From IMG/VR virus record IMGVR_UViG_2778261172_000005, positions 1-36,440 of that record: a stretch of 36,440 nt of DNA. The stretch is one strand, 5' to 3'. The translations under genes were made by a program, and so were the position numbers. Of the stretch, positions 8,331-32,269 are shown one piece after another. The DNA comes from a virus. Lineage: Duplodnaviria > Heunggongvirae > Uroviricota > Caudoviricetes. Under the pieces are notes generated by a model that was given only the letters and a program-made list of their open reading frames with translations, was not told where the DNA came from and searched no databases. How positions within the stretch are numbered: position 1 is the first letter of the stretch; every line of letters starts with the position of its first letter.

Positions 8331-8333
8331 GAT

Positions 8334-8604: not shown

Positions 8605-8661
8605 TTAAACTCGCTCGCGAGAATCACCCCCCAAATTATATGCAAAATTAAAAATACCAAT

Positions 8662-9579
8662 TCACTCCATTTCTCTTTTGGCTAATTCTTCCCATTCGTC
8701 GATTGAGTTATTATAAGGAAATACCTCTTTAACTATGAAAGGAATGTAGCTTTCTTCAGCATTGTGATGTATTTCATTACTGATATTACTTGTGATTCCG
8801 AATTTTACGTCAGGATCGTTTTCAGAGAAATGTATATGAAAAGGTTGTTGACCTAAAGCCTGTCTAATTTTATTTGCTTGTTCTGATGGAAGGACTTTAA
8901 GTAGCTGTTTGAATGTTTTTTTATTAAAGTCTAGAGAAATGGCCATATCAATATCTCCGGGTATCATAGATATGCACGTGTATGACCGTTCGCTCAATCG
9001 ACTAATAAATTTAGTATTTATAGCAGGGGCACTAAAAGAACCATCTTTAACCAAACCCATTTTTCGAATATGAATTCCAAAATCAGGTGCATAACTCAAG
9101 ACATCCGGATTGGCTTTAATATCTGGATTTAATATCCTAAATAATTTTTCCCAGTAATTACCAATGTCTTTCAAAGAAAATCTGAGTATTGGGTGGAGTT
9201 CCCGTATACTATATAGAACAAATTCATTCCCATTGCACAATGCATACATTTCTGCCCTTATTTCTGGATGTATAGCATAACTATAGGCTTGCTCAACGTG
9301 CATGCTTTTGGTTATTTTTTCATTAGGGGCCTTTGCATCAAGAATCCAATATGGTCGGTCGTTAGAAAGAAAAACATAATCCGGTACTATTGAAATCTTT
9401 CTTGGCTGTGAACCTATTGAGACAAATGGATGTGTAAGCGTTTTGCTCCTGATTACACGACTATCTCCCGATGCTTTATAACCAAGAGCTTTAATAATTG
9501 GTAAAATCAACTCTTCTCTGACTGAATCCTCTTTAAATTCATCTGAGCTTAGTAAGTTAAAATCAAAATCATCAAACAT
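8662..9579 (-). CDS. PD-(D/E)xK nuclease-fold protein with an HsdR-N-terminal-like domain and an unassigned C-terminal half (305 aa)
   Basis: N-terminal pattern EELILPIIKALGYK...IVPDYVF...WILDAKAP...VEQAYSYA...ALCNGNEFVLYS fits the type I restriction R-subunit N-terminal (Mrr-like) nuclease fold, with D, D-A-K and Q signatures. The gene is AT-rich, has its own terminator and sits at the Z/fun position. I am confident it is coding and less sure of the family. Confidence 0.7.
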   Translation of the reverse strand: MFDDFDFNLLSSDEFKEDSVREELILPIIKALGYKASGDSRVIRSKTLTHPFVSIGSQPRKISIVPDYVFLSNDRPYWILDAKAPNEKITKSMHVEQAYSYAIHPEIRAEMYALCNGNEFVLYSIRELHPILRFSLKDIGNYWEKLFRILNPDIKANPDVLSYAPDFGIHIRKMGLVKDGSFSAPAINTKFISRLSERSYTCISMIPGDIDMAISLDFNKKTFKQLLKVLPSEQANKIRQALGQQPFHIHFSENDPDVKFGITSNISNEIHHNAEESYIPFIVKEVFPYNNSIDEWEELAKREME

Positions 9580-9593
9580 ATCCCCCCCACATA

Positions 9594-9623
9594 TATTTAT
9601 TTGACAAAAGATGTATAATTCAA
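9594..9623 (-). promoter_or_regulatory. Candidate sigma70 promoter for the 305-aa gene: -35 TTGAAT (9623-9618), 18-nt spacer, -10 TAAATA (9599-9594)
   Basis: Read on the minus strand directly upstream of a G7 Shine-Dalgarno-like run and the ATG at 9579. This is only a hexamer match. Confidence 0.3.
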
Positions 9624-9893
9624 ATTATTCAGAGCCATTGTAAATCACTATAGAATAAAAAGATAATTTCAAGTGGAGGTGTTATCTGATTTTTTGATTT
9701 ATAGCACAAAAAACGACCTCTACAGGCTGTTTATTACGATAGTTAAAGCTGATCACATTTAGGCAGTCAGTCCAAGATGCTCTCTTCAACATGGCCTAGG
9801 TTTTTTTACCGTCGAAGAAGATAATTGTGTCCATAGCATGATGCTTTCAAGTGGTATGATCTCTTTCTCAGTGATTCATGCAGTATGAGCCTA

Positions 9894-9934
9894 GCAACTT
9901 CTGCTTCTGGCACAGGGCGGACTTTCTGACTGAG
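9894..9934 (-). repeat. Cargo-island repeat, copy A (internal, same orientation as B)
   Basis: Plus strand GCAACTTCTGCTTCTGGCACAGGGCGGACTTTCTGACTGAG aligns with 11051-11092. The shared stretch CTGCTT(C/T)TGGCACAG(G/A)GCGGACT is nearly identical. Confidence 0.7.
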
Positions 9935-10085
9935 TTGAAGGTCTGCTGCGACCGAATATCGGACATTAATAACCTCAGAGACATAGCGCCCTTGAAATGC
10001 ACCCCTCCAGAAATGAAAATCTGTTATGATACTAGCATAAACTATTTATTTTTCAGTAAAGTTTAGAAAACAAATTTTTATGAAT

Positions 10086-10112
10086 AGAAAAAAGGAGAAC
10101 AATGCCCTCCTT
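10086..10112 (-). terminator. Candidate terminator of the DUF2971-like gene
   Basis: On the minus strand, AAGGAG-GGCATTGTT-CTCCTT followed by TTTTTCT. It lies about 20 nt past the stop. The stem is short (6 bp). Confidence 0.45.
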
Positions 10113-10130
10113 CTTTATTTTTAAATTCTA

Positions 10131-10859
10131 CTACAATTTAATTTTTAGTCTTTTAGGAGCATCGTATAGAGTAGATATTTTTATTTCGGCTTTACAACCC
10201 TTATCCTCAATTGCCAATGTGTATGCCTGCCTTAAGTTTTTTTCCATTCTTGGGTCAAATAGCACGGTGTCTAATAGTTCAACTGGATTAATTTCAAACT
10301 GGAAAATATCATTATCGACACTATTATCATCACCAGAATATATTAAACGAACTTCGCTTTCGTGTTCAAACTCCACGCGTTTGTATAAAAGCGATTCAGC
10401 AATGCCTGAGCCATTAGTGTTGAATAAATCAATTGACAAGAGTTTTTCCGAAAGAGTATCCTCCGGAAGATAAGAAACCTTGCCTATAAAACACCTTAAA
10501 TTATGGTAAGTCGGCTCTGCTTTTTGAAGTGCGGCTAATAGTTTTCTTGGTGTGGTTGAAACTCTTACACCATTTTTATCATGGGAATATATCCGCCACA
10601 TTGCATCGGTTTCACTATGAAATGTCCAGCATTGCCCATAAACAGAATCTCTTGCGGCAACTGTTCCTGTTTGACCATCAGAAGTTTCAATTACACAATT
10701 TAATAAAGCGTTCTCAAAAGGGTCATCCCATTTTCTTGGTTTTACTAAAGTTAATTTTTTTTCTTCAAGCAATTGAAGAAAACGGTGTATTGGCATAATT
10801 CTATAAATAGGTATATCCAATGATTCATCTGTTAAATTAATATAGTTATTATAGCTCAT
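10131..10859 (-). CDS. DUF2971-like protein (242 aa)
   Basis: The motif order matches my memory of DUF2971: IYRIMPIHRFLQLLEEKKLTLVKPRKWDDPFE, then GQCWTFHSETDAMWRIYSHDKNGVRV, then LLYKRVEFEHESEVRLIY. The gene is strongly AT-rich and sits at the Z/fun position. Confidence 0.65.
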   Translation of the reverse strand: MSYNNYINLTDESLDIPIYRIMPIHRFLQLLEEKKLTLVKPRKWDDPFENALLNCVIETSDGQTGTVAARDSVYGQCWTFHSETDAMWRIYSHDKNGVRVSTTPRKLLAALQKAEPTYHNLRCFIGKVSYLPEDTLSEKLLSIDLFNTNGSGIAESLLYKRVEFEHESEVRLIYSGDDNSVDNDIFQFEINPVELLDTVLFDPRMEKNLRQAYTLAIEDKGCKAEIKISTLYDAPKRLKIKL

Positions 10860-11050
10860 ACATATTGACCTTTTGGTAGTTAGTGTAATTAAAAAGGCGG
10901 TTGGGATATTTTAGCAAAAACCTAAGAACTGATTCAACCCTGCGGACTTACAGATTTCAGTTCATATATCCAATGTTATAAATTCTCATTTATGAACTAT
11001 TCTCCTAAAATTTTTTGATTTCAATCTTTAGAGAGCGCAAAAGACCTATG

Positions 11051-11107
11051 TTCGAATGACTGCTTTTGGCACAGAGCGGACTGTCAGATTAGGCTTTACT
11101 CTGTGCC
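11051..11107 (-). repeat. Cargo-island repeat, copy B (11051-11092), with an associated 9-bp-arm hairpin GGCACAGAG / CTCTGTGCC (11068-11076 and 11099-11107)
   Basis: It lies immediately downstream of the G stop (11143). See copies A and C for the alignments. Confidence 0.7.
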
Positions 11108-11142
11108 ATAGATATGTAAGCTCACACCAGAGTTCATACAAC

Positions 11143-11670
11143 TTATTGCGGCATTTCCGGCCATTCAGGATTTGCAGGATCCACACGACTGACCAGAACG
11201 CTGTAGCGTTCCCAAGCCTCCAGCCGTGTGCGCTCCTCCTCTGTTGCCATGTTCAGTCTGACCGCGCGCTCCAGCGGCAAAATCACGGATTCAGCATCTG
11301 CAAGAAGTCTGGCTTTCCGAATTTCTGCCTGCTGCTGTAATTCCTCTGCCGTATAAATGCGTTTAATCACTTTGCCGTCCTTAAACATCCAGCCCCCTGA
11401 AATATCCGCCCGTCGGTTAGCAGTAATATCCGCCACTTCAACCACACTTAATCCATCCGGTCTGATAGCTGTCACATCCTTTTCCACATAGCGGATGATA
11501 TTATCTTTGTCGTACGCTATTTTTATCGTGTCATCAGCAAAATACTTTTGTTCTTCGTACCAGTTCTTACCATCTTCTGTAAAAAACCAGACAACATCAA
11601 AGCCCTTTGTCAATTGATATTGTTCAACTGTTTTTGGATTACCCGCCGTTATATTTATCAAATGCTGCAT
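11143..11670 (-). CDS. G: Tail fibre assembly chaperone gpG (175 aa)
   Basis: P2-collinear, 175 aa, directly downstream of H. Confidence 0.85.
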
Positions 11671-11673
11671 AAA

Positions 11674-13992
11674 TTATACCTGCGCTACGTTATACCATGT
11701 CCCGTTAATGTATTTCTGCACCGGTCTGTAATATATGCCACCAATGTTATCGGCAGAGTTTGAGCCGGTATCCTGAACAATAATGCCGGAATATACACAC
11801 CCGGACGGTGCCTGATGTGTCCATGTCATGCCATTGTTCGCAGGTTTGTATGTGGCAGCACCACCAAGCCGGATATCCCGGACATAGCGTGAATCAAAGT
11901 TGCCATAGTTAGATGGTGATACCTGCCCGTTAACAGCAAAAGTGATGCTGTTATCTGTATTTCTCTGACTGTAAAAATGCCAGCCTGCATCATCACCTAA
12001 TTCAGCCACCACCGGACGACTTGAGTTTCCCCACAAATTGAATGCGGCTTCCTTCGTGGATGTATTACTGCTGCTGACCGTGAATTTTTTCCCGCTACCG
12101 GCACGTACTTTGGTACTTGAGACAATATCACCAGTAACATTCAGGCCATGCCCCATTGATACAGCACCAGTGGCATCATTTATAATCAGCGGTCTTAAAT
12201 TATTATAAGTGCCTAATCTGTCACCTGATTTAGTCAACATAAAATAAGTGCTGCTGCCATCATTCCTGATAAAGAAACCATAATTGCCATAAGCAATGCG
12301 CAGACCATTAGCACTGAGTGATGTAATCTCACCTCTTGAACGGAGACCATAAGCGGAGCTGAGTGATAATTCTTCCTGAGCATCAGTATTACCAGTCGCC
12401 CAACGAACTACCCCGCCCTGTACTGTTTCATGCCAGATAGTGTCTCCTTCTCCACCACGAAACTTTCTGAGATATTTTTTGCCGCCTCTTGTGCCTGAAC
12501 ATAAGGCCGTAGACATATAGGCATTCTGGCTTCCACCGTCCTGATTAATCGTTCCGGTCATTGCGTCGCCCTGACGATTCCAGTCACGACGCCAGCCGGG
12601 GGAGTAGCCGTCCCCATGATTAATGTAAGTGAATTGTGCGCTGGTTGTACCGCCACCGCTTGATGTTGTCGGCGTGGTCACTCGGATAGTGATTGCAGAT
12701 TTAGTTCCCATGACCTCGACGACACAACCAGCCAGGTGGATATCACCACATCCGGTATCCGTAATGATTTTGTTATTTGCATATGACCAGGAGCCTTTGC
12801 ACATCCAGTACGGATGATTAAATGCACCACGGGAATCCAGCCATTCAATAAACTGAGCGGTTGTCCAGTTTCCGGCTTCAGTGCTCAAAGCGCCGCTATA
12901 AGCACGACAGGCACCGATATTTTTCGTGAAGGTATCCTTTCCCGGAATATCCGCACCATTCTGATCTTTCTGAAGACGTTTTTCAGCATTGTCATAGGCA
13001 GACTTCACCGCTTTTGATGTTGCGGCCAGCGTTTCAGAATCACTGTTGGTGGCGCTACTGAGCTGGACAAGCCCTTTTCGCGCCGTGGTGGCATCCTGTG
13101 CAGTGTATTTCCCGTTAGCAAGGTCATACGCAGCCTTTACCGCCTTTGGCGTTGCCGCAAGCGTTTCAGCCGTGCTGTTAGTGGCACTACTGAGCTGGAC
13201 AAGGCCTTTTCGCGCTATGGTGGCGTCCTGTGCGGTATATTTCCCGTTAGCAAGGTCATACGCGGCCTTTACCGCTTTCGGCGTTGCGGCTAGCGTTTCA
13301 GACGTGCTGTTGGTCACACTACTGAGCTGAACAAGGCCTTTTCGCGCCGTGGTGGCATCCTGCGCAGTATATTTCCCGTTAGCAAGGTCATAGGCGGCCT
13401 TTACCGCTTTCGGCGTTGCGGCCAGTGTTTCAGACGTGCTGTTGGTCGCACTGCTTAACTGAGTAAAACCTTTTGCGGTCAGCGAGGCGTCCGGGTGACG
13501 TCGTGACTGTTCGTGCTCTGCAATTTTGTCATCAACGTAATCCTGCGTTGCCATCACCGTTGTGGTGTCAATGGTCAGCTCCACTGAGGCCACACTGCTG
13601 ACGATGATGACCATGCGGCAGGTCTGCGAACGCCCTGAGCCTTCGGCAAGAGCTGGCTTATAACTTTCGGCCATGTTCGCCACGGCAATTAACGTTCCCG
13701 CATCATCGTACAGGCCAAGCTCACGCATCCAGAAACCGCCCACCTCCGGCGGAATAACCAGCTCTGCGATAATATAATTACTGTTTCGTTTGTCCTGACT
13801 GATTTTGTTCAGCGCATGTCGCCAGACTTCGTGGATAAGCCCGGTCTGTCCGGCATCCGGGACAGGCAATTTACCACCGCCATCCCCGACGGCCATCGTG
13901 GTAATGTTGACCTTCCGCCCTTCCGGCGCGGTTGCCGCTGCCAGCTTTGCTGCACCGGCAGTGGTGATAACGGTTCTGAATTTTGTGCTCAT
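11674..13992 (-). CDS. H: Tail fibre protein gpH (772 aa)
   Basis: It has the conserved P2-type N-terminus (MSTKFRTVITTAGAAKLAAATAP...). It is longer than my recollection of P2 H (669 aa) because of tandem repeats and a different C-terminal receptor-binding part. Confidence 0.9.
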   Translation of the reverse strand: MSTKFRTVITTAGAAKLAAATAPEGRKVNITTMAVGDGGGKLPVPDAGQTGLIHEVWRHALNKISQDKRNSNYIIAELVIPPEVGGFWMRELGLYDDAGTLIAVANMAESYKPALAEGSGRSQTCRMVIIVSSVASVELTIDTTTVMATQDYVDDKIAEHEQSRRHPDASLTAKGFTQLSSATNSTSETLAATPKAVKAAYDLANGKYTAQDATTARKGLVQLSSVTNSTSETLAATPKAVKAAYDLANGKYTAQDATIARKGLVQLSSATNSTAETLAATPKAVKAAYDLANGKYTAQDATTARKGLVQLSSATNSDSETLAATSKAVKSAYDNAEKRLQKDQNGADIPGKDTFTKNIGACRAYSGALSTEAGNWTTAQFIEWLDSRGAFNHPYWMCKGSWSYANNKIITDTGCGDIHLAGCVVEVMGTKSAITIRVTTPTTSSGGGTTSAQFTYINHGDGYSPGWRRDWNRQGDAMTGTINQDGGSQNAYMSTALCSGTRGGKKYLRKFRGGEGDTIWHETVQGGVVRWATGNTDAQEELSLSSAYGLRSRGEITSLSANGLRIAYGNYGFFIRNDGSSTYFMLTKSGDRLGTYNNLRPLIINDATGAVSMGHGLNVTGDIVSSTKVRAGSGKKFTVSSSNTSTKEAAFNLWGNSSRPVVAELGDDAGWHFYSQRNTDNSITFAVNGQVSPSNYGNFDSRYVRDIRLGGAATYKPANNGMTWTHQAPSGCVYSGIIVQDTGSNSADNIGGIYYRPVQKYINGTWYNVAQV
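12991..13473 (-). repeat. In-frame tandem repeat inside H: about 3.7 copies of a 132-nt (44-aa) unit
   Basis: The unit KG(L/F)(V/T)QLSS(A/V)TNS(T/D)(S/A)ETLAAT(P/S)KAVK(A/S)AYDLANGKYTAQDAT(T/I)AR repeats over aa 174-334. The 132-nt period is visible in the DNA (e.g. CTACTGAGCTGGACAAG at about 13056 and 13188). Confidence 0.9.
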
Positions 13993-14002
13993 TATTCCTC
14001 AC

Positions 14003-14533
14003 TTATCCGGGGTAAACCGTAATTACATCGCCGTCGTAAGCCACACCACCGGCGAACAGATAGCCGGGAATGTCCCGGGTAATGTTCAGGCCAATAAGGT
14101 GACGGCTTGCAGGTTTGGCATCAGCAATCAGCCGTTCCATTTCCTGATACATTGCCTCTGTGATACCGCTTTCCAGTACACCAATATCAAGCCGGAAGGT
14201 GCCGGGCGGGTCACTGTTTTCCCACCACTCCGTCACGTTGATGAGATAGCCGAGCGGCTCCACCACACGCCGGATTGCGCCGACAGTGCCTTTATGACAG
14301 TGAATGAAATACGCATCGCGGATAACGGCGCGTTTTGTCGCTTCCGGCCACTTTTCATCCCAGCGGTCAACCGAAAATGACCACGCCAGCCACGGCAGCA
14401 GATTTGCCGGGCAGGTGTCCGGGTTCCACAGCTCACGAATACTGACCGGTGTTTTTTCAATTTCCGCACAGGCTTTTGCGGCGGCGACCTCAAGCGGTGA
14501 TGAGCCGGTCGGCAGCAGTCGCGAATCACTCAT
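14003..14533 (-). CDS. I: Baseplate protein gpI (176 aa)
   Basis: P2-collinear, 176 aa. Confidence 0.9.
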   Translation of the reverse strand: MSDSRLLPTGSSPLEVAAAKACAEIEKTPVSIRELWNPDTCPANLLPWLAWSFSVDRWDEKWPEATKRAVIRDAYFIHCHKGTVGAIRRVVEPLGYLINVTEWWENSDPPGTFRLDIGVLESGITEAMYQEMERLIADAKPASRHLIGLNITRDIPGYLFAGGVAYDGDVITVYPG

Positions 14534-15434
14534 CCGAGCCTCCGGTCACGACGCGGTATTCGGTACAGAAAGACGCCTGCGTACTGTTGAGCACGATGTC
14601 GGCCAGTGGTGCAGCCAGTTCGACACGCTGCACACCTTCCACATGCAAAGCGGCATAAATGGCAGACAGACGGATGTCACGCCCCAGCCGGTGCTGTGCT
14701 GTGATATACGCTTCCAGTTTTTTCACGGCGGCAGCGCGAATGGGTTCGCTTTCGGGGCCAGGGTAAAGGTAAAGCGTGGCGTTTATCTGGTATTCAACAA
14801 TGGCGGCAGACTGCACGGTCACACGGTCAGCCACCGGCCTGACGTCCTCACCATTAAGGGCGTTACGCACCACAGCCAGCAGGTCTTCGGATGCGACACC
14901 GTTATTTTCACGTGACAGCACAGAGATGGTGACGCAGGCCGGAGACGGACTGGTGACAGAGATATCCGCGACACGCCCGTCGGCACTGCGACCATGATAC
15001 TGATAGGCTCCCACCGACCCGGCGACGCTTAAGCCTTCAAACGCCTGCTGAATACGCAGACGATAATCCGTGTCAGATTCCATCACTGCCGGTGTCGGCG
15101 GGATGGTCGAATCATCTGCCGGGGTGATAGTCAGGCGCGTGGTGTTGTAATTGGCACCAATCACATCAAGGTCATTACCGGCTGCACAGGCCAGCATCAC
15201 CGCCCGTGCGGCCTCATTCACACGCTGACGCCAGATAAGCTCGCGATAAGCATTTTCCTCCAGCAGTTTGACGAGAGGCTCGGATTCCAGCGTCAGGGTA
15301 CGGGCGACCGCCTCCTGCTGGTCTTCCGGGTAAAGGGAAATCAGTGTCGCCTTGCGTTCGGCAAGAATGCTTTCAAAGTCCAGCTCCTCGACCACATCCG
15401 GTGCGGGTAGCTGGTTCAGGTCGATAATCGGCAT
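14526..15434 (-). CDS. J: Baseplate wedge protein gpJ (302 aa)
   Basis: P2-collinear, 302 aa, with an 8-nt overlap with I. Confidence 0.9.
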   Translation of the reverse strand: MPIIDLNQLPAPDVVEELDFESILAERKATLISLYPEDQQEAVARTLTLESEPLVKLLEENAYRELIWRQRVNEAARAVMLACAAGNDLDVIGANYNTTRLTITPADDSTIPPTPAVMESDTDYRLRIQQAFEGLSVAGSVGAYQYHGRSADGRVADISVTSPSPACVTISVLSRENNGVASEDLLAVVRNALNGEDVRPVADRVTVQSAAIVEYQINATLYLYPGPESEPIRAAAVKKLEAYITAQHRLGRDIRLSAIYAALHVEGVQRVELAAPLADIVLNSTQASFCTEYRVVTGGSDE

Positions 15435-15438
15435 GGTT

Positions 15439-15786
15439 TCAACTCACAGGGATGGTTAATGAAAGTGGCTGGCCGGTGTCGTTGTGCTGGCCGGTTAACG
15501 TGACCGTCATTCGCCCGTCAAAACTGCGCTCAGTGGTGACGGATGACAGGGTGACGCGGGGTTCCCATTTCAGCACCGCCATGTAACAGGCGACCTTAAT
15601 CTGCAACTCAAGCGCCGGGGTCTGCGGCTGGTCAATCATTGATGCCAGCAACGAGCCGTAATCACGACGCATCACCCGTGAGCCGACCGGTGTGCGCAGG
15701 ATATCGCCGATACTCTGGCTGATATGCTCAAGGTCAGTGACAGTCAGGCCATCACTGCGATTCATTCCGAGATAACGCGCTGTCAT
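15439..15786 (-). CDS. W: Baseplate protein gpW (115 aa, GPW/gp25 family)
   Basis: P2-collinear, 115 aa. Confidence 0.9.
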   Translation of the reverse strand: MTARYLGMNRSDGLTVTDLEHISQSIGDILRTPVGSRVMRRDYGSLLASMIDQPQTPALELQIKVACYMAVLKWEPRVTLSSVTTERSFDGRMTVTLTGQHNDTGQPLSLTIPVS

Positions 15787-16418
15787 AAAGGACTCCCGGT
15801 TGTGCCGCCGCTGTCGCCGGGGTGTTTATGGGTATGCAGTACCTTACCGTTTGATGAGAGTTCACCGCCGGTGTGTTCAATGTTGCCGCGCATCGTCCCG
15901 CCCTTCTGCACTTCCAGCGTGCCGGTAATCAGCTTGTTGGTGCAGACCACCTCCGGTGTGTCCAGGGTGATGCGGGTTGACGCTTTCACCATGACCACCG
16001 GCACCGTGGCAGTAACAGAATCAGAAGCCGTCACGCTGGCCGTTTTAATTCCGCTTACCGTCAGTGAACTGGTTTCGGGTTCATACTCAATCACCGCCCC
16101 GTCAGGGAAACGGATATGCAGGGCATCCGCCGACGCAGACGGCGCGGGATTATCGCCGGAATAAATCCCCGGCAGAACAAACGCCGTGTCGAGTTCACCA
16201 CCCACGGCCAGAATCAGCACCTGTTCCCCCACGGAAGGTGCCCACCATGTGCGCGAACGCCCGGCGCGATGGGTCAGCCACTGAAGCCAGTCGGTGCACA
16301 TGCCGCCGGTCTGCACACGGCAGCGACCGGCGTTAAGGTCAGTTTCGACGATAATGCCGGTGCGAATCATGTTGCGCAGTGCGCGCGCGAGTTCCTGAAT
16401 ATTTGCGAGAGTGTTCAT
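15783..16418 (-). CDS. V: Baseplate hub/spike protein gpV (211 aa)
   Basis: The Met at 16418 (MNTLANIQELARALRNMIRTG...) gives the P2 size of 211 aa. The 223-aa track ORF is over-extended. There is no obvious SD upstream. Confidence 0.85.
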   Translation of the reverse strand: MNTLANIQELARALRNMIRTGIIVETDLNAGRCRVQTGGMCTDWLQWLTHRAGRSRTWWAPSVGEQVLILAVGGELDTAFVLPGIYSGDNPAPSASADALHIRFPDGAVIEYEPETSSLTVSGIKTASVTASDSVTATVPVVMVKASTRITLDTPEVVCTNKLITGTLEVQKGGTMRGNIEHTGGELSSNGKVLHTHKHPGDSGGTTGSPL

Positions 16419-23627: not shown

Positions 23628-25400
23628 ATGACCATCACCACAGACACCACTCTTTTGCACGACCCGCGTCGTCAGGCGGCGCTGCTGTACTGGCAGGGTT
23701 TTTCCGTGCCGCAGATTGCCGCCATGTTGCAGATGAAACGCCCGACGGTGCAGAGCTGGAAACAGCGCGACGACTGGGACAGCGTTGCCCCCATCAGCCG
23801 TGTCGAAATGAGTCTGGAAGCGCGGCTGACCCAGCTCATTATCAAACCACAGAAAACCGGCGGTGACTTCAAGGAAATTGACCTGCTGGGACGCCAGATT
23901 GAACGACTGGCACGGGTAAATCGCTACAGCCAGACCGGCAACGAGGCAGACCTTAATCCGAACGTCGCTAACCGCAACAAAGGCGGGCGGCGCAAACCGA
24001 AAAAGAATTTTTTCAGTGACGAGGCCATCGAAAAGCTGGAGCAGATTTTCTTTGAGCAGTCTTTCGACTATCAGTTGCACTGGTATCGCGCCGGGCTTGA
24101 GCACCGCATCCGCGATATCCTGAAATCCCGCCAGATTGGCGCGACGTTTTATTTTTCCCGCGAGGCGCTGCTGCGCGCCCTGAAAACCGGCCATAACCAG
24201 ATTTTTCTGTCGGCCAGTAAAACGCAGGCGTATGTGTTCCGTGAATACATCATCGCCTTTGCTCGTCTGGTTGACGTTGACCTGACCGGTGACCCGATTG
24301 TCCTGGGCAATAACGGCGCAAAACTGATTTTTCTCGGCACCAACTCCAACACCGCGCAGAGTCATAACGGCGACCTGTACGTCGATGAGATTTTCTGGAT
24401 CCCGAATTTTCAGGTACTGCGTAAGGTGGCATCAGGTATGGCCTCACAGAGTCACCTGCGCTCGACCTATTTCTCCACCCCGTCCACGCTGGCGCACGAC
24501 GCCTACCCGTTCTGGTCGGGTGAACTGTTTAACCGGGGACGCGCCAGCGCCGCCGAACGCGTGGAAATCGACGTCAGTCATAACGCCCTTGCCGGTGGGC
24601 TTCTCTGTGCGGACGGCCAGTGGCGACAGATTGTCACCATTGAGGACGCCCTGAAAGGCGGCTGCACGCTGTTCGACATTGAGCAGCTCAAACGCGAAAA
24701 CAGCGCCGACGATTTTAAAAACCTGTTCATGTGTGAATTTGTTGACGACAAGGCATCGGTGTTCCCGTTCGAGGAGCTGCAACGCTGCATGGTCGACACG
24801 CTGGAAGAATGGGAAGACTATGCGCCGTTTGCCGCCAATCCGTTCGGCTCCCGCCCGGTATGGATTGGTTACGACCCGTCACACCGTGGCGACAGCGCCG
24901 GATGCGTGGTACTGGCACCGCCGGTGGTGGCCGGTGGCAAATTCAGAATACTTGAGCGTCACCAGTGGAAAGGCATGGACTTTGCCACCCAGGCGGAATC
25001 CATCCGCAAACTCACCGAAAAATACAACGTCGAATACATCGGGATTGATGCCACCGGCCTCGGTGTCGGCGTGTTCCAGCTCGTGCGCTCGTTCTATCCC
25101 GCCGCGCGTGATATCCGCTACACGCCGGAAATGAAAACCGCAATGGTGCTCAAGGCAAAAGACGTTATCCGCCGTGGCTGTCTGGAATACGACGTCAGCG
25201 CCACCGACATCACCAGCTCGTTTATGGCTATCCGCAAGACCATGACCAGCAGCGGACGCAGCGCCACCTATGAGGCCAGCCGCAGCGAGGAAGCCAGCCA
25301 CGCCGACCTCGCCTGGGCGACCATGCACGCCCTGTTAAATGAGCCACTCACCGCCGGTATCAGCACCCCGCTGACATCCACCATTCTGGAGTTTTACTGA
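23628..25400 (+). CDS. P: Terminase large (ATPase/endonuclease) subunit gpP (590 aa)
   Basis: The Met at 23628 (MTITTDTTLLHDPRRQAALLYWQG...) has SD GAGG 5 nt upstream. The size is 590 aa as in P2. Confidence 0.9.
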   Translation: MTITTDTTLLHDPRRQAALLYWQGFSVPQIAAMLQMKRPTVQSWKQRDDWDSVAPISRVEMSLEARLTQLIIKPQKTGGDFKEIDLLGRQIERLARVNRYSQTGNEADLNPNVANRNKGGRRKPKKNFFSDEAIEKLEQIFFEQSFDYQLHWYRAGLEHRIRDILKSRQIGATFYFSREALLRALKTGHNQIFLSASKTQAYVFREYIIAFARLVDVDLTGDPIVLGNNGAKLIFLGTNSNTAQSHNGDLYVDEIFWIPNFQVLRKVASGMASQSHLRSTYFSTPSTLAHDAYPFWSGELFNRGRASAAERVEIDVSHNALAGGLLCADGQWRQIVTIEDALKGGCTLFDIEQLKRENSADDFKNLFMCEFVDDKASVFPFEELQRCMVDTLEEWEDYAPFAANPFGSRPVWIGYDPSHRGDSAGCVVLAPPVVAGGKFRILERHQWKGMDFATQAESIRKLTEKYNVEYIGIDATGLGVGVFQLVRSFYPAARDIRYTPEMKTAMVLKAKDVIRRGCLEYDVSATDITSSFMAIRKTMTSSGRSATYEASRSEEASHADLAWATMHALLNEPLTAGISTPLTSTILEFY

Positions 25401-26434
25401 TGAGCAAGAAAAAAGGGAAAACACCGCAACCTGCGGCAAAAACAATGACCGCCAGCGGCCCGAAAATGGAGGCATTCACCTTTGGTGAGCCGGTGCCGGT
25501 ACTCGACCGCCGTGACATTCTGGATTACGTCGAGTGCATCAGTAACGGCAGATGGTATGAGCCACCGGTCAGCTTTACCGGTCTGGCAAAAAGCCTGCGG
25601 GCTGCCGTGCATCACAGCTCGCCGATTTACGTCAAACGCAATATTCTGGCCTCGACATTTATCCCGCATCCATGGCTTTCCCAGCAGGATTTCAGCCGCT
25701 TTGTGCTGGATTTTCTGGTGTTCGGTAATGCGTTTCTGGAAAAGCGTTACAGCACCACCGGTAAGGTCATCAGACTGGAAACCTCACCGGCAAAATATAC
25801 CCGCCGTGGCGTGGAAGAGGATGTTTACTGGTGGGTGCCGTCCTTCAACGAGCCGACAGCCTTCGCGCCCGGCTCCGTGTTTCACCTGCTGGAGCCTGAT
25901 ATTAATCAGGAGCTGTACGGCCTGCCGGAATATCTGAGCGCCCTTAACTCTGCCTGGCTGAATGAGTCGGCCACGCTGTTCCGCCGCAAGTATTACGAAA
26001 ACGGCGCACATGCCGGATACATCATGTACGTCACCGATGCCGTGCAGGATCGCAACGATATCGAAATGCTTCGCGAAAACATGGTGAAGTCGAAAGGCCG
26101 CAACAACTTTAAAAACCTGTTTCTCTACGCCCCACAGGGAAAAGCCGACGGTATTAAAATTATCCCGCTCAGTGAAGTGGCAACGAAGGACGATTTTTTT
26201 AATATCAAAAAAGCCAGCGCCGCTGACCTGCTTGACGCGCACCGCATCCCCTTTCAGTTGATGGGTGGCAAGCCGGAAAACGTCGGGTCGCTGGGCGATA
26301 TTGAGAAAGTGGCAAAGGTCTTTGTCCGCAATGAGCTTATCCCGTTACAGGACAGGATTCGGGAAATAAACGGCTGGCTCGGTCAGGAGGTCATCCGCTT
26401 TAAAAACTACTCACTGGACACTGACAACGACTGA
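25400..26434 (+). CDS. Q: Portal protein gpQ (344 aa)
   Basis: P2-collinear, 344 aa, with a 1-nt overlap with the P stop. Confidence 0.9.
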   Translation: MSKKKGKTPQPAAKTMTASGPKMEAFTFGEPVPVLDRRDILDYVECISNGRWYEPPVSFTGLAKSLRAAVHHSSPIYVKRNILASTFIPHPWLSQQDFSRFVLDFLVFGNAFLEKRYSTTGKVIRLETSPAKYTRRGVEEDVYWWVPSFNEPTAFAPGSVFHLLEPDINQELYGLPEYLSALNSAWLNESATLFRRKYYENGAHAGYIMYVTDAVQDRNDIEMLRENMVKSKGRNNFKNLFLYAPQGKADGIKIIPLSEVATKDDFFNIKKASAADLLDAHRIPFQLMGGKPENVGSLGDIEKVAKVFVRNELIPLQDRIREINGWLGQEVIRFKNYSLDTDND

Positions 26435-26603: not shown

Positions 26604-26622
26604 GTGCTTTCCCCGCCTCGCC
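26604..26622. other. cos cohesive-end sequence (19 nt)
   Basis: GTGCTTTCCCCGCCTCGCC is the reverse complement of my remembered P2 cohesive end GGCGAGGCGGGGAAAGCAC. It sits at the expected place next to Q. Confidence 0.8.
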
Positions 26623-26908
26623 CGCCCGCTTCACATCGCCTTTTTAATGCAAGTGCAACGATTCAGTGTTCCAAGCATGGTTTTAGGTGAATAGAGAATG
26701 AGAGGGTAAAAAAAATCATGCAGATTAATGCACCTATAGATGCATTATTAAACTAATAGGATAGTTGTGATATTGGCTGCATTGACTCCACTTGTGAGGG
26801 AACAAACCAACGACAGCGCAAGATTCAACCTGACAATTAACTATTCCCCAGAGGGATATTCTTACAGTATTTAAGTCATCAGTTGATTATTCATTAGCAC
26901 TGCCGTTA

Positions 26909-26942
26909 TTGACAATTTTGTTGTTTTTTGAGATGTTATTAA
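26909..26942 (+). promoter_or_regulatory. Candidate promoter of the cargo cassette: perfect TTGACA (26909-26914) and extended -10 TGtTATTAA (26934-26942)
   Basis: This is only a hexamer reading. The 22-nt spacing between the two elements is too long for them to work together, so the extended -10 would have to act alone. Confidence 0.3.
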
Positions 26943-26975
26943 ATCAAGTTCCATAGATAAGATCATGGGTGGGCG

Positions 26976-27521
26976 ATGATAAATATTAATGAAGAAATTA
27001 ATAATTCTTTCGATGAGTTTGATGAGGAGGATAAACAGCAAGCTTACTTATCTTTCTTTAAAAATAGTTTCCCTTTTTTACTTTGCCCAACTCTATTCAA
27101 ACGCAGTGAAGATCTCCCTCAATTAAATTGGGTGAAAGTAAAATATACTGAGCATGCGGCTCATACTTTCCCAAATCAACAGGGAGTATATATGTTTATG
27201 GTTGGTTTCGAAAGCACTAAGCTCCCCAATAATTCATATGTTATGTATGTAGGAAAGGCCGGCGATACTAATTCCAACAACACAATCTGCAAAAGGTTTA
27301 AAGATTACGTTAATCCATCTGGATTTAGAGACAGGCCCAGAGTTAAGAAACTCATTCAGCATTTTAGTGAGCATTTATATTATTACTATGCAACACTCCC
27401 AACAGGGCAATCCACAGCAGATGTTGAATCCACTTTAGCCGATATTTTCGCACCACCTTGTTGTCAACGAGATTTTTCAGCTAATGTGCGAAGCTTATTG
27501 AGAGGAGTTAGAATTATATGA
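26976..27521 (+). CDS. GIY-YIG-like nuclease-domain protein with an acidic N-terminus (181 aa)
   Basis: QGVYMFMV-x11-SYVMYVGKAG...ICKRFKDY...YYYYATL...ADVESTLADIFAPP follows the GIY...YIG...R...E order of GIY-YIG catalytic cores. The gene is AT-rich. Its stop overlaps the next ATG (ATGA at 27518-27521). Confidence 0.6.
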   Translation: MININEEINNSFDEFDEEDKQQAYLSFFKNSFPFLLCPTLFKRSEDLPQLNWVKVKYTEHAAHTFPNQQGVYMFMVGFESTKLPNNSYVMYVGKAGDTNSNNTICKRFKDYVNPSGFRDRPRVKKLIQHFSEHLYYYYATLPTGQSTADVESTLADIFAPPCCQRDFSANVRSLLRGVRII

Positions 27522-28657
27522 ATCAACGTTTAGTCCTTCCATGTTTGAGAGGCTATATGGGGAGCTGGATTACATATAGTTGCATGATGAGACTTTCAGA
27601 TGCATCCAATTTGATCGGGTTTGCTGAGGAACTCCATCAAATTGATAAATTGTCAGACAAAATACAACGTGAATTAAATAATGATAGGGCTGAAGAAATC
27701 TCTCATTATTTGGTTAGCAATGATGATCGCTTCTTTAACTCATTAGTTGTAGCTGTTTATGATGGCGATCCAAATTGGCATGAAATTGGAGGAATAACTC
27801 CAAACAATGAAGAAGCCTCTTTGCTTGATTTTCCTGAGTATGCAGGGAATTGCATTGGTTTTTTATCCATTACAAGAGATGAAAAATTTTTTGCACTTGA
27901 TGGACAACATCGCTTAGCTGGCATCAAAGCTGCTCTTAAAGTTAATAGCGATATTGCTGATGATCTAATTAGCGTTATTATTGTTGCTCATGCTAATACG
28001 CCAGAAGGTAAAGTAAGATCCAGAAGATTATTTACCACTTTAAATAAAAAGGCAAAATTAGTTAGTAAAGATACCATTATAGCTTTAGATGAGGATGATA
28101 TAGCAGCATGCATAACAAGACGTCTAATTGAGGCAGAGGATTTCATATACTTCAATGAAGATAACGTATCCTTTAACTCTGGTCCTGTTAGAGATAAAAC
28201 GAGCATCACATCTATTGTTAATATATATGATAATGTTCAGAAGTTAGTAGCATATAAATTAGGTGTTAAAATTACCGAGTTGGAAAGATACAAGTATAAA
28301 GATCATATTGACATATACAACTTCATTTCTAATTTTTATAGCTACACATTCGAAGGATGTGAAGAGTTAATCAAAGTAGCTAAAGGTGAACAACCTGCTG
28401 GATTTTATAGAAATTCCGAAACTGGTGGGCATATTTTGTTTAGACCTATTGGTTGGGATTTATATACAGATATAGTACTCTATGCCATGACTCATTTTAA
28501 TCATGACCTTAAAAAGGCAATTCAACACATCACCAAACACAATCTAAACATGTCTGGCTCTATTCTATCCAACAAAGTTTGGTCAACAAAACAAAAGAAA
28601 ATCCTTAAGATAAGTGCTAAAAACATAAAAGCAATACAAAAAAGTTTGTTATCATAA
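27518..28657 (+). CDS. DGQHR-domain (DndB-like, ParB/Srx-fold) protein (379 aa)
   Basis: It carries the literal motif FALDGQHRLAGIK followed by RRLFTTLNKKAKLVS, the signature of the DGQHR/DndB family. The gene is AT-rich and translationally coupled to the upstream ORF. Confidence 0.75.
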   Translation: MNQRLVLPCLRGYMGSWITYSCMMRLSDASNLIGFAEELHQIDKLSDKIQRELNNDRAEEISHYLVSNDDRFFNSLVVAVYDGDPNWHEIGGITPNNEEASLLDFPEYAGNCIGFLSITRDEKFFALDGQHRLAGIKAALKVNSDIADDLISVIIVAHANTPEGKVRSRRLFTTLNKKAKLVSKDTIIALDEDDIAACITRRLIEAEDFIYFNEDNVSFNSGPVRDKTSITSIVNIYDNVQKLVAYKLGVKITELERYKYKDHIDIYNFISNFYSYTFEGCEELIKVAKGEQPAGFYRNSETGGHILFRPIGWDLYTDIVLYAMTHFNHDLKKAIQHITKHNLNMSGSILSNKVWSTKQKKILKISAKNIKAIQKSLLS

Positions 28658-28680
28658 ATCAATTGATACTATATTACTGT

Positions 28681-28719
28681 ACAGTTTAAAAACCGCCAAT
28701 CAGGCGGTTTTTAAACTGT
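28681..28719. terminator. Bidirectional terminator between the cargo cassette (+) and the early operon (-)
   Basis: Perfect 17-bp arms ACAGTTTAAAAACCGCC / GGCGGTTTTTAAACTGT around a 5-nt loop. The GC core has an A-run on one side and a T-run on the other. Confidence 0.8.
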
Positions 28720-28815
28720 CAACCAAGCGTTTCTTGAGCGGTTTACATTCTTAAACCAGTGCCGTATTTAACTAAACATAACATTCCAGCCAATCTGACA
28801 GGTCAGTAACATCCG

Positions 28816-28974
28816 TTATCCGGGCTTCACTTTTCGTCTCGTATATCCATACAGAATAAACGAGCCTCCGCTCTCATAATTACGGTGATTTTTAAGAAAC
28901 TCCGCGCGTTTCTTTCCTTCCAGCCCAAGGTCTAAATATTTTGTGTGCAGCTTTACCTCATGAATTTTTGCCAT
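28816..28974 (-). CDS. Small ASCH/DUF3850-like protein (52 aa), possibly truncated
   Basis: MAKIHEVKLHTKYLDLGLEGKKRAEFLKNHRNYESGGSFILYGY resembles the N-terminal two thirds of DUF3850/ASCH beta-barrel proteins. Its ATG shares a base with the A stop (TAATG at 28972-28976). Confidence 0.5.
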   Translation of the reverse strand: MAKIHEVKLHTKYLDLGLEGKKRAEFLKNHRNYESGGSFILYGYTRRKVKPG

Positions 28975-31265
28975 TATGTCCACTCCATTACAGCTGAGAA
29001 TCCCGGCCACTCATCAGCGACCGGATACGTGAATTTTTTCCCGTCATAATTTACTGTTGCCCCACGCGCCAGCGCCTCAAGCTCCCATCGCTGCGGCCTG
29101 ATACCGTTCTGAGCAAGGTCAACGCGGATACGGGTAATTTGCGTTCGTTCCGACCGGGTCAGTCTGGCCGATGGCGCTATTTCATGTGGTTTTAACGGGC
29201 TTCCGTTTCTCTGCTGACGATTTGGTGTTCTCAGTTCGTGTTTTAATGCACCTCTGAGCGCCCTCACGACCTCTGGCTCATTCCATTCGATAACACCGTC
29301 ATCAACCAGATTAAGCACTGCTGCGGCGTGCTCAGAAGGCGTGGGAGCCGGTGACGAAGTATCACCGTCGGTAAGCTTTCCACAGTTATTGACAGGACTC
29401 CGAGGCGCGGCGATGCCGCTTTTTAAAGTCAAAGGCTCAACGACCGGAACTTTCGGCACAATGCGCCAGTCCGTCGTTCTGGTGATATGAATATGACGCG
29501 CGCCGAGATGCGGCGCGTAAATGCCGACCACTCTCTCGACTTCTTCCTCATACTCGTTAACGTCATCCGACGGGCTACGGGCGACCCTGACAGTCTGACA
29601 ATCGCGCGGGACATTTGCCCCGCCCTGCGCGCTGATATACAGCGCAAAATCGCCACTGTCTGCGGCAGCGCGTGCAGCCTCGACGCGTTCGTCAAACTCA
29701 TCAGCAATGCTGACGCCGCGAGGCAACTTACGTAGTTCACGGTAAGCCCCCATTGTCGGCAGGCCAACCGTTTTAAATTGCGGGATGCGCCACGTTGACG
29801 CCCATGCGGTAACAGCCGCAGCAGTGTCTTTCAGCGGCCTGCCGGTATCGTTATCGAGCTGACCATCCAGTGCATAGCCGTCGATGTTTTTTGAAATGTA
29901 TTTCGCGATATATCCCGCAGCACCGCCCCGGTTAAGGTGTTTTGCCTGAAAACGGTTTCGCGCAGCTCCTCTTTCGTCGCCATCCTCTTTGAGCGCATAG
30001 CGACGCATGATTTCGATAATCTGGTTACGCTGGCGTGGATTACAAAAAAGCATCATATGCCAGTGCGGCGTTCCGTCGTGGTGTGGCTCGACGACTCGCA
30101 AACCGTAGACCTGTAAATCATTATCCTTGAATGCCGTGCGCATCAGGCTCCAGATACGGCAGAGATAACGCTGCGCATCCTTCGGATTAAATGCCTCATC
30201 ATTCCAGCCGTGATTAAGCTGGACGGTTTTACTTTCGCCTTTTCCGACCTGACGTGTCGGATGATACTTTGACGGCGCGGTCAGCGTGATAAACATCCCC
30301 ACATCACCCTCTGCGGCGGCGTAACGCTCAATACCGGCAATGGTGTTCATCAGCTCCATCCGGCGAATTTCAGGATTAGAAATACTGCCCATCACCTTAC
30401 TGATAAGGTCGATGCGTTCGCCGGTTTCCCTGTTTTCAAGGTCACACGATTTAAGAAATTCCAGATTTGCCTGACGGCGCGTACGCACATCACGAATAGC
30501 ATGTTTACTGGCATAAGGTGAACGGTCTTTATTGACCTCCCCGACAGCAATCAGTAACGCCTCATGCCAGCGCATACGCTGGCCTTTAAGCTGATGAGTC
30601 CACCACTCATCGTTAAACAGACGGGCAATGGCAGAATATGCCTGCCTCGTGGTCATCTGCCCTTTACGGTATTTTTTCCAGTAGAGAGGGGAAATATTGA
30701 AAGCTCGTGCAGCGCCAGCAACATGACCATACAGGTGAGCCTGCGCCTCATCCGTAAACAGCGATTCTTTCTCGCCATGCGCATCCACCCAGGCATCGCT
30801 GAGTTCCTCATACATCATGAAAAGCTGCGATGAGATACGGGCGGCAAATTTTTTCAGCTCCTTGTCATTCATTCCCGGCAGGCGTGCATACTGGTCGCGC
30901 TCTGCCAGAAACAGCAACGACGCGTCGGTGTTCATTTCATGGCGCTGATTCACGCGCTCAATGCGCGGCCATAAACGACGCTGAAAAGTGGATGTGAGGA
31001 AATAAAACCCGTGTAGCGGACTTTTATTGCGCCGGATGTAGTCATAGCGTGAAGTAAACAGCGAGCGCAAAAAGTAAGGCAGGCGGTTAATCGTGGATAA
31101 AACACCTTGCACCTGACGCATCTCGTCACGTGTAAGGGTTCTTTCGCGCCCGACGGCCTCGCGTGGCGCGTTCCATGCATAAGCACCGGTAAACGCCTTA
31201 CCGGTGCCTGCAGCAAATGCTGACGGAGGTACGCAGGTGTATTGCTCCTGGAAAGAATGACTCAT
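28974..31265 (-). CDS. A: Replication initiation endonuclease gpA (763 aa), rolling-circle HUH type
   Basis: It has the HUH-like motif EPHHDGTPHWHMMLF and the tyrosine motif GYIAKYISKNIDGY. It is P2-collinear; P2 A is about 761 aa. Confidence 0.9.
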   Translation of the reverse strand: MSHSFQEQYTCVPPSAFAAGTGKAFTGAYAWNAPREAVGRERTLTRDEMRQVQGVLSTINRLPYFLRSLFTSRYDYIRRNKSPLHGFYFLTSTFQRRLWPRIERVNQRHEMNTDASLLFLAERDQYARLPGMNDKELKKFAARISSQLFMMYEELSDAWVDAHGEKESLFTDEAQAHLYGHVAGAARAFNISPLYWKKYRKGQMTTRQAYSAIARLFNDEWWTHQLKGQRMRWHEALLIAVGEVNKDRSPYASKHAIRDVRTRRQANLEFLKSCDLENRETGERIDLISKVMGSISNPEIRRMELMNTIAGIERYAAAEGDVGMFITLTAPSKYHPTRQVGKGESKTVQLNHGWNDEAFNPKDAQRYLCRIWSLMRTAFKDNDLQVYGLRVVEPHHDGTPHWHMMLFCNPRQRNQIIEIMRRYALKEDGDERGAARNRFQAKHLNRGGAAGYIAKYISKNIDGYALDGQLDNDTGRPLKDTAAAVTAWASTWRIPQFKTVGLPTMGAYRELRKLPRGVSIADEFDERVEAARAAADSGDFALYISAQGGANVPRDCQTVRVARSPSDDVNEYEEEVERVVGIYAPHLGARHIHITRTTDWRIVPKVPVVEPLTLKSGIAAPRSPVNNCGKLTDGDTSSPAPTPSEHAAAVLNLVDDGVIEWNEPEVVRALRGALKHELRTPNRQQRNGSPLKPHEIAPSARLTRSERTQITRIRVDLAQNGIRPQRWELEALARGATVNYDGKKFTYPVADEWPGFSAVMEWT
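29389..29408 (-). other. Candidate ori / gpA nick site inside gene A
   Basis: The minus strand reads GCGCCTCGGAGTCCTGTCAA, which matches my uncertain recollection of the P2 A-protein cleavage region. It lies in the 3' part of A, where P2 ori maps. Confidence 0.4.
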
Positions 31266-32269
31266 TCACATACACCGGCATAGACACTACTGCAAACGGC
31301 TTTATCATTCGCCGAAGCCAGTAAATCAAACTGAGTACCCCCACGCGTTGTCATTGTCCAGTCATGGTAGGTTTCTATTCCGTATGCCTCGACTGTTACA
31401 ATCTCAATACGACGTTCTGCGCGTAGCGGATCATGTGTGGATGGGAAAAAAGTGGAATTTCCCCGACGGGAGCACGACGCAACCAGTCGTTCCCATTCAG
31501 CAACCCGTTTTATTTCCTCCGGCCACCGGCGAAAAATTTCTGCCAGTTCAGATTTACGGACATGAATACATGGCATACAACCAACACGGCCACACCCCTG
31601 CTGATATAACGGATTTGGCTTAATGTCATGTCTTCTGGCTATTGCAAATACATCTTCATGCTTCCAGTGCAAAATCGGGCGATATACATGCAATCCGGGG
31701 GTGTTGTCTGCATCCTCTTCCCAGACAGGTAAAGCAGCGCGTGATGGCGATTCCTGAGCACGCACTCCCTGCCAGCTAATCACTTCCTCAAATTCATTGA
31801 GTAAAGGCAATATTACCTGAGAACGCACGGGCTCATGTTTCAGTTCAAATGTGCAAAATCTGGCTTTGGTTGATGGGAAACGCCCCTTCCACAGACACAA
31901 ATCAAGAAACGGGATACCCGTTGGTTTGAGAATTTCCAGCGCACAACTGATGCGCTGGTGCGCTTCTTCTTCCGACATTCCACAATCGTTAACCAACAAA
32001 TCAGGCCATTTGGTCTGGATAAACTTGCGCTTTGATTCAATCCGGCAGGAAAAATCAGCTCTGACTCTTTTAATTGGGCCAAGCCGTTTTTCCAGATAAT
32101 CCAGATATTTCATTGTCTGTGGATGTTCATGTCCCGTATCAGCAAAAACCGGCAATATGGGTACATTTTCTTCAATAGCGACAAGCCACTGAGCAAGGCT
32201 GTCCTTTCCACCTGAAACAAAAATAACATTGATGGTATTTTCAGTATGGCAACGAGCATCAGTAATCAT
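31262..32269 (-). CDS. PP-loop ATP pyrophosphatase of the PAPS-reductase / DndC-like family (335 aa)
   Basis: It has the N-terminal PP-loop motif VIFVSGGKDS and a C-terminal cysteine cluster QQGCGRVGCMPC. ATGA overlaps join it to both the upstream ORF (32266-32269) and A (31262-31265). As I recall the P2 early operon, P2 has no such gene. Confidence 0.75.
   Translation of the reverse strand: MITDARCHTENTINVIFVSGGKDSLAQWLVAIEENVPILPVFADTGHEHPQTMKYLDYLEKRLGPIKRVRADFSCRIESKRKFIQTKWPDLLVNDCGMSEEEAHQRISCALEILKPTGIPFLDLCLWKGRFPSTKARFCTFELKHEPVRSQVILPLLNEFEEVISWQGVRAQESPSRAALPVWEEDADNTPGLHVYRPILHWKHEDVFAIARRHDIKPNPLYQQGCGRVGCMPCIHVRKSELAEIFRRWPEEIKRVAEWERLVASCSRRGNSTFFPSTHDPLRAERRIEIVTVEAYGIETYHDWTMTTRGGTQFDLLASANDKAVCSSVYAGVCE

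Follow-up and report, generated by a model that had tools for sequence, protein, structure and literature searches.

The stretch of DNA analysed here (the window) is the 36,440-nt viral record IMGVR_UViG_2778261172_000005, which represents a P2-like prophage. It carries a two-gene cassette in which a gene for a GIY-YIG protein (ORF1) is followed by a gene for a DGQHR-domain protein (ORF2). We conclude that this cassette is a mobile, stand-alone copy of a conserved two-gene module, and that in most bacteria the same dyad is built into gene clusters for phosphorothioate (PT) modification of DNA, where it lies after sspBCD or beside dnd genes. The unit carried by the prophage is probably an uncharacterised nuclease-based defence module. 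By analogy with known PT systems, we give an even chance to the proposal that the dyad is a split GIY-YIG counterpart of SspE and DndI and functions as a defence nuclease.

The GIY-YIG and DGQHR proteins

The cassette consists of two open reading frames (ORFs) on the + strand, ORF1 (26976–27521, 181 amino acids, aa) and ORF2 (27518–28657, 379 aa). Their junction, TTATATGAATC, contains the tetranucleotide ATGA (27518–27521), which supplies both the stop codon of ORF1 and the start codon of ORF2 in a 4-nt overlap. An earlier account of this DNA, made without database searches (the sequence-only reading), had described two co-directional ORFs of these lengths with an ATGA overlap and had quoted peptides from both; all of these were found as claimed.

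Structural modelling and motif conservation indicate that ORF1 is a divergent, stand-alone GIY-YIG protein with a conserved active site, and thus a predicted nuclease. The model (predicted local distance difference test score, pLDDT, 76), built from 20 homologues, has a confident core and the alpha/beta fold of GIY-YIG proteins. When a profile of the 79-member family, whose members share 19–56% identity with ORF1, was compared with PDB sequences, the only matches were UvrC GIY-YIG domains, with weak E-values of 0.27–0.65, and the motif register of the family agrees with that of UvrC (YVGKA / R..Y). The key residues of ORF1 are G70-V71-Y72, Y91-V-G93-K94, R107, Y111, R120 and E151, and the columns that are invariant among the 79 relatives are Y72, Y91, G93, R107, Y111, R120 and E151. 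Y72, Y91, R107 and E151 correspond to the Tyr/Tyr/Arg/Glu catalytic set of GIY-YIG enzymes. All four of these residue types are therefore present in ORF1, while an equivalent of the catalytic Asn was not identified. The sequence-only reading had assigned ORF1 to the GIY-YIG group from a guessed motif register, and both the fold and the register are borne out by the model and the family invariants.

An exhaustive profile search placed the relatives of ORF1 in 685 clusters at 50% identity. The matches listed are all short (70–237 aa), and no fusion to a larger protein was present among them. In the gammaproteobacterial clade, residues 1–45 (26976–27110 in the window) form an extra acidic N-terminal helical segment, beginning EEINNSFDEFDEEDKQQ..., which is missing from most members of the family and is modelled with low confidence.

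ORF2 is a member of the DGQHR/DndB family, as the sequence-only reading had proposed. It matches the Pfam DndB family PF14072 (E = 7.5e-32, 111 bits; cut-off 29.1) and the DGQHR model TIGR03187 (110.1 bits; cut-off 58.85). The DGQHR domain is defined by a QR pair and by DGQHR and FxxxN motifs (PMC4619093). These correspond to Q50-R51, D128-G-Q-H-R132 and F172-x3-N176 in ORF2, and all three are essentially invariant across 62 partner proteins. Identity with DndB proper was rejected, since the score against the DndB equivalog model TIGR03233 (78.8 bits) falls far under the cut-off of 328 and no dndCDE genes are present in the window. PADLOC 2.0 assigned only its generic DndB model to ORF2. A HEPN Rx4-6H motif has been suggested for the C-terminal domain of DndB (PMC3632139); the gammaproteobacterial clade shares the corresponding R298-x6-H305 of ORF2, but the family as a whole does not conserve H305, and we therefore make no HEPN claim for ORF2.

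Linkage of the dyad to phosphorothioate modification

The genomic context of the dyad was compared in 63 loci, taken from one genome per species and found with a query alignment narrower than the 79-sequence set. The loci come from Gammaproteobacteria, Alphaproteobacteria, Chloroflexota, Acidobacteriota, Planctomycetota, Spirochaetia, Latescibacterota and Nitrospinales. In 61 of the 63, a DGQHR gene in the same orientation lies directly 3' of the GIY gene. The junction is a 4-nt overlap in 36 of these 61 pairs and a 1-nt overlap in a further 8, as given by an in-house ORF caller that placed some starts too far upstream. Furthermore, the pairwise distances among the GIY proteins correlate with those among their DGQHR partners (r = 0.92). 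The two genes form an old, obligate and coupled dyad. The sequence-only reading was correct in placing the cassette in a P2-like cargo hotspot. The pair is not an invention of prophages, however; it occurs far beyond P2-like prophages, as a widespread accessory of Ssp and Dnd clusters.

The dominant layout, in 30 of the 63 loci (which were chosen by the presence of the GIY gene and are not a share of all Ssp/Dnd systems), consists of a divergent cysteine desulfurase gene followed by genes for DUF4007/SspB, SspC (a BrxC-like P-loop protein of ~1130 aa), SspD (a PAPS-reductase of ~280 aa), the GIY protein and the DGQHR protein. The median gap between sspD and the GIY gene is 21 nt. The position after sspD is that occupied by sspE in the described sspBCDE operons. 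A search within 8 kb found a DUF262/DUF1524 protein in none of the 30 sspBCD-linked loci. The placement of the dyad in the SspE position, together with the lack of an SspE-like gene within 8 kb, favours a split analogue of SspE and DndI.

The genes downstream of the dyad differ among loci. Some loci contain a CxC/DndD-like ABC ATPase and an HKD-SF2 helicase, and others an MzaB-like HATPase with a PLD protein, or FtsK-like proteins of ~1800 aa. Three sspBCD-linked loci (L033, L016 and L061) have nothing recognisable as another restriction gene downstream of the dyad. Further copies adjoin dndC and dndD, or DndE-HerA genes. In Shewanella (L012), Salmonella SARB27 (L080) and P. viridiflava (L084) the dyad lies beside a complete dndBCDE set with its own canonical DndB; the order in SARB27 is GIY, DGQHR and a DndI-like gene, adjoining dndBCDE. 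About a dozen loci have no PT gene within 8 kb.

Several individual loci have features of their own. In a Dehalococcoidia metagenome-assembled genome (L016), two dyads flank sspABCD, at 943–1434 (-) and 7971–9760 (+). The P. viridiflava locus contains two paralogous subtypes of the dyad (1348–3080 and 7459–9140) beside dndBCDE and a GmrSD-like gene. In Salmonella Infantis SARB27 (AFYI01000007.1) the DGQHR gene looks frameshifted, with its N-terminal 50 codons in another frame, which may be a draft-assembly error. Additionally, eleven loci pair the dyad with recurrent unannotated genes that we label c8 (~630–950 aa, with a faint HSP90/sacsin-like ATPase signal), c11 (~470–530 aa), c16 (~285 aa), c13 (~330 aa) and c20 (~285 aa). 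These include L018, L020, L049 and L053 (~9700–16300) and L019, L035, L041 and L056 (~3300–7700), and some of these loci additionally contain a PAPS-reductase-cluster protein of ~540 aa. This recurrent set may constitute a modification or restriction system that has yet to be described.

Analogues, proposed mechanism and alternatives

In SspE and DndI, the restriction partners of SspABCD and DndBCDE, a PT-sensing NTPase of the ParB-like type is fused to an HNH nickase; both occur alongside DndFGH or SspFGH restriction modules (PMC11662687). Similarly, the dyad combines an NTPase-type domain of the ParB/Srx superfamily (QR, DGQxR, FxxxN) with a predicted DNA nuclease, is linked in the genome to genes for PT modification and shares some loci with further restriction modules. 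Unlike SspE and DndI, it consists of two polypeptides, its nuclease is of the GIY-YIG rather than the HNH type, and its reader belongs to PF14072 rather than DUF262. Neither DUF262 (PF03235, E <= 1) nor DUF1524 (PF07510) matched ORF1 or ORF2.

The sequence-only reading had drawn an analogy with type IV enzymes that include GmrSD and BrxU. GmrSD and BrxU also join a ParB-like NTPase to a nuclease, exist in a split form (GmrS with GmrD) and occur in defence islands and on mobile elements. They differ in their DUF262 and DUF1524 domains, in their targets (glucosyl-hydroxymethylcytosine or other modified bases) and in having no link to PT clusters. The PT linkage of the dyad points to SspE and DndI, not GmrSD or BrxU, as its closest analogues. 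GmrSD-type genes adjoin the dyad as separate genes in some loci.

Other relatives cover parts of the dyad. ORF2 shares Pfam family PF14072 and the DGQHR signature with DndB, but unlike canonical DndB its family is preceded by a GIY-YIG gene and co-occurs with a separate canonical DndB. PD-T4-3 (PDB 9u75), a GIY-YIG enzyme from P2-type prophages, is a fold neighbour of ORF1; it differs in being a single protein of 248 aa with its own reader region and no DGQHR partner, and PADLOC found no match between it and ORF1. The Aravind group noted URI/GIY-YIG nucleases that border Dnd systems and proposed them as back-up suicide effectors (PMC10853773). These probably overlap with the ORF1 family, although the obligate dyad, its sspBCD linkage and the prophage cassettes are not described there. 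Identity with SspFGH, which comprises three genes including a Walker A protein and an FtsK-like translocase (PMC8092258), was rejected because the dyad contains neither of these two proteins.

As a split analogue of SspE and DndI, the dyad would work through a DGQHR protein that binds DNA and nucleotide and serves as reader or switch, and a GIY-YIG partner that nicks or cuts invading DNA. We infer that the two proteins form a complex, possess nuclease and NTPase activity and confer a defence phenotype. In a P2 lysogen the cassette would be transcribed from its own promoter and would shield the host, and hence the prophage, from other phages. The prophage copy, which lacks PT genes, could act independently of PT, rely on a PT system encoded at another site in the host or act on PT-marked incoming DNA. 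A wider claim is that the dyad represents an unrecognised and widespread class of PT-immunity effectors, which replaces SspE in a large part of the Ssp systems of many phyla, accompanies Dnd and has been captured by mobile elements (P2, lambdoid and filamentous prophages and integrative and conjugative elements) as a self-sufficient two-gene defence independent of the modification genes; this we advance tentatively, as a possibility with somewhat less than an even chance.

It is important to realise the points that weigh against a defence nuclease of this kind. ORF1 has no match in Pfam, NCBIfam, PHROGs or PADLOC at E <= 1, and the Pfam GIY-YIG model PF01541, which the sequence-only reading had named as a check, is among those that gave none. 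The nuclease assignment comes from the structural model and from motif conservation. PT coupling holds at the level of the family, and no PT genes are adjacent to the copy in the window, whereas SspE requires host PT marks to function (PMC11662687). The literature yielded neither a named system nor an experiment for the GIY-YIG and DGQHR pair. Finally, many Ssp-linked loci hold other restriction-type modules, so the dyad could have a modification or regulatory role, as DndB does.

This last point bears on the alternative that the dyad is a regulator of, or accessory to, PT modification. A DndB-like DGQHR protein would limit or direct PT incorporation or repress the operon, the GIY-YIG protein would aid access to DNA or its turnover, and the prophage copies would be orphans that modulate the PT system of the host. 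In favour of such a role, dnd is under negative control by DndB, which is itself dispensable (PMC10853773, PMC12914056), and the dyad is constant beside sspBCD while the restriction-type modules downstream vary. We nevertheless consider it unlikely. Canonical DndB (43.7 bits against ORF2) co-occurs with the dyad in the Shewanella, SARB27 and P. viridiflava loci, and the two are therefore not redundant. Furthermore, the catalytic GIY-YIG residues are invariant, and strong purifying selection acts on stand-alone copies, which have no adjacent PT genes and occur on mobile elements of at least four kinds.

In hosts free of PT, the prophage copy might instead behave as a type IV-like enzyme, in which incoming DNA that bears PT or another modification is read by the DGQHR protein and cut by its GIY-YIG partner. 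The PT ties of the family make the reading of PT plausible, the ParB-like domains of SspE and DndI read PT, and PD-T4-3, the fold neighbour of ORF1, is a solved restriction enzyme specific for 5-hydroxymethylcytosine; an orphan reader with a nuclease would also be harmless to an unmodified host. The same activity within an ssp or dnd cluster would, however, cleave the DNA of its own host, so that an inversion of specificity would be required, and we regard this alternative too as improbable.

The coupled, overlapping and jointly inherited genes could also be read as a toxin-antitoxin or abortive-infection pair, in which a toxic GIY-YIG nuclease is restrained by the DGQHR protein and either stabilises islands and prophages or kills infected cells. 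The dyad is frequent on mobile elements beside HicAB and HipA, and the suicide role proposed for URI nucleases at Dnd boundaries (PMC10853773) would fit. The arrangement is a poor match for it: the putative toxin lies upstream of a larger putative antidote, type II systems do not usually have proteins of 181 and 379 aa, and the consistent embedding with sspBCD is left unexplained. We judge such a pair to be quite unlikely. Phage counter-defence, in which the cassette would hamper host PT restriction by repressing or mimicking Dnd/Ssp and so aid P2 or the lysogen, is very improbable. The relationship of the DGQHR protein to a dnd regulator and the known targeting of Dnd systems by phages speak for it, but the same dyad resides in chromosomal Ssp/Dnd clusters of many phyla, the P2 slot holds defence cargo in tested cases (PMC9122126) and repression needs no nuclease with a conserved active site.

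If the dyad is an effector, the published repertoire of Ssp/Dnd immunity (SspE, SspFGH, DndFGH, DndI and PbeABCD) omits a partner that amounts to 685 clusters in Proteobacteria, Chloroflexota, Acidobacteriota, Planctomycetota and other phyla. The dyad would also be another example of a ParB-like reader that works with a nuclease, in this instance one of the GIY-YIG type. In E. coli, the stand-alone prophage copies provide a small system of two genes with which to distinguish PT-independent from PT-targeting action, and they illustrate that chromosomal modification systems are a source of cargo for prophage hotspots. Should the dyad prove to be merely a regulator remnant, the finding would be of limited interest.

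The cassette in the P2-like prophage and on other mobile elements

The copy in the window forms a group with those of Serratia and Citrobacter, to which the Dnd-adjacent Shewanella copy and a Vibrio copy are sister. Free cassettes of this kind were found in a P2/186-like hotspot in Serratia, beside HicAB and an FRG protein; at cargo positions of lambdoid prophages in Citrobacter and Enterobacter, with a KAP NTPase, LEM-3 GIY-YIG, colicin and PRTase-CE/NADAR genes as neighbours; at the ends of filamentous prophages in Vibrio, with Zot and Rep_trans; in integrase-bearing islands at lptFG in E. coli and Pectobacterium, with GmrSD/DndI-like, dndE and dndD genes; and on an integrative and conjugative element. 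The copies of the clade are AT-rich relative to their hosts (GC 0.34–0.39 against 0.46–0.52). Between the window and the Serratia P2-hotspot copy, the ratio of nonsynonymous to synonymous substitution rates (dN/dS) comes to 0.079 (ORF1) and 0.055 (ORF2), and synonymous sites are nearly saturated. Such low values between stand-alone P2 copies indicate that both genes are kept functional without adjacent PT genes and, together with homologues in many genera, that the coding is not due to chance. In the Vibrio loci L085 and L013 the dyad is terminal cargo, and that of the V. cholerae filamentous prophage adjoins a HEPN_RiboL-PSP-like gene; a survey of defence-type cargo on inoviruses may be worthwhile.

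A promoter-like element travels with the cassette. It spans 26909–26937 (+), ~40 nt upstream of the ORF1 ATG, and consists of a -35 hexamer TTGACA (26909–26914), a 17-nt spacer with TG at 26929–26930, and a -10 hexamer GATGTT (26932–26937). In an alignment of seven cassettes, drawn from P2 and lambdoid prophages, islands and chromosomal sites, the TTGAC and TTTGnGA blocks are invariant at fixed spacing, and the -10 reads GAT(G/T)TT after the fixed 17-nt spacer with TG. Homology among the seven begins at this element and stops at the ORF2 stop codon, beyond which each copy has an unrelated hairpin. The start coordinate given by the sequence-only reading for the cassette, 26909, is the first base of this TTGACA. 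A consensus promoter scanner did not call the element at 26909–26937, and its role as a promoter is putative, suggested by these conserved blocks.

Within the window, capsid and terminase genes and the portal gene Q (25400–26434) precede the cassette, and the replication gene A (28974–31265) follows it in convergent orientation. GC content is 0.31–0.39 over 26750–28850, against 0.51–0.60 in Q/P and 0.52–0.59 in A, with means of 0.342 for the cassette and 0.522 for the flanks. The left edge of the cargo slot, outside the cassette, is marked by a cos-like 19-mer, GTGCTTTCCCCGCCTCGCC (26604–26622), which we take to be the P2 cos sequence in reverse complement. Shortly past this 19-mer, at ~26633–26658, the match to P2-like phages stops, and the variable insert extends from ~26659 to ~28800. 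The AT-rich leader of the insert (26659–26908) is shared only in part with the Serratia P2-hotspot copy and shows no conservation with cassettes from other contexts. Both the low GC content (34% against 52%) and the position between the cos-proximal end of P2 homology (~26658) and gene A agree with what the sequence-only reading had reported.

A putative bidirectional terminator hairpin (28681–28719), accompanied by A and T runs, separates the cassette from the convergent early operon. Its arms (28681–28697 and 28703–28719) are each 17 nt long and 100% complementary around a 5-nt loop. The predicted RNA fold has an energy of -26.9 kcal/mol (z = -7.9), which none of 200 shuffled sequences equalled. 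Repeat and fold analysis thus confirmed the perfect 17-bp-arm hairpin that had been described as closing the cassette. The hairpin was absent from the output of a consensus terminator scan, probably because the A/T runs lie inside the stem, and its structure is consistent with a terminator function. It is not homologous to the hairpins of other cassette copies and therefore belongs to this insertion rather than to the conserved cassette.

The slot between Q and A has held defence cargo in tested cases in P2 (PMC9122126). In sibling prophages that carry a 100% identical PAPS-reductase gene, the same slot holds either an Old-like ATP-dependent nuclease with a hypothetical gene, or a DUF7380 protein. 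The differing cargo on the same backbone confirms that the cassette is exchanged and upholds the exchangeable cargo hotspot claimed by the sequence-only reading. That account had also called the system undescribed. No named match was found in PADLOC or in the literature, but the locus already appears, unnamed and untested there, in Table S5 of Rousset et al. 2022, where "DndB + hypothetical" P2-hotspot loci are listed and one has WP_086048488, the accession of ORF1. These accessions are absent from Table S2 of that study, which gives the tested systems, and the main text of a 2026 paper on P2/P4 hotspots makes no mention of DndB, DGQHR or GIY-YIG.

An identical 2.1-kb segment is present in 2 of 5426 complete E. 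coli genomes, PEC209 and JNEC-KY180, and the arrangement in the window equals that of JNEC-KY180. INPHARED contained no DNA match to the cassette and a search of IMG/VR found nothing; the sole good protein match in phage collections was a 501-kb Salmonella chromosome contig (SARB27) filed among phages.

The early operon contains a PAPS-reductase-domain gene (31262–32269 (-); PF01507, 5.3e-35) with weak similarity to DndC, which adjoins gene A. Solitary PAPS-reductase genes have been discussed in connection with PT and BREX type 4 (PMC12914056). This gene was rejected as a partner of the dyad, since it is found in 44 of the 5426 E. coli genomes against 2 for the cassette, the siblings with the identical gene carry other cargo, and no such gene lies near other cassette copies. 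A dndC-like gene occurs in 207 of the 5426 genomes; PEC209 and JNEC-KY180 are not among the 60 matches listed.

A short ORF at 28816–29010 (-), which overlaps the start of gene A, has a weak DUF3850/ASCH match (E 4e-4). In PEC209 (L001 8299–10601), an IS21-family element, ISEc12 (istA, istB), lies between the cassette hairpin and this ORF; the element is absent from the window and from JNEC-KY180. The annotation of both PEC209 and JNEC-KY180 treats the ORF itself as a pseudogene, truncated or frameshifted; it was probably left behind by cargo that occupied the hotspot earlier.

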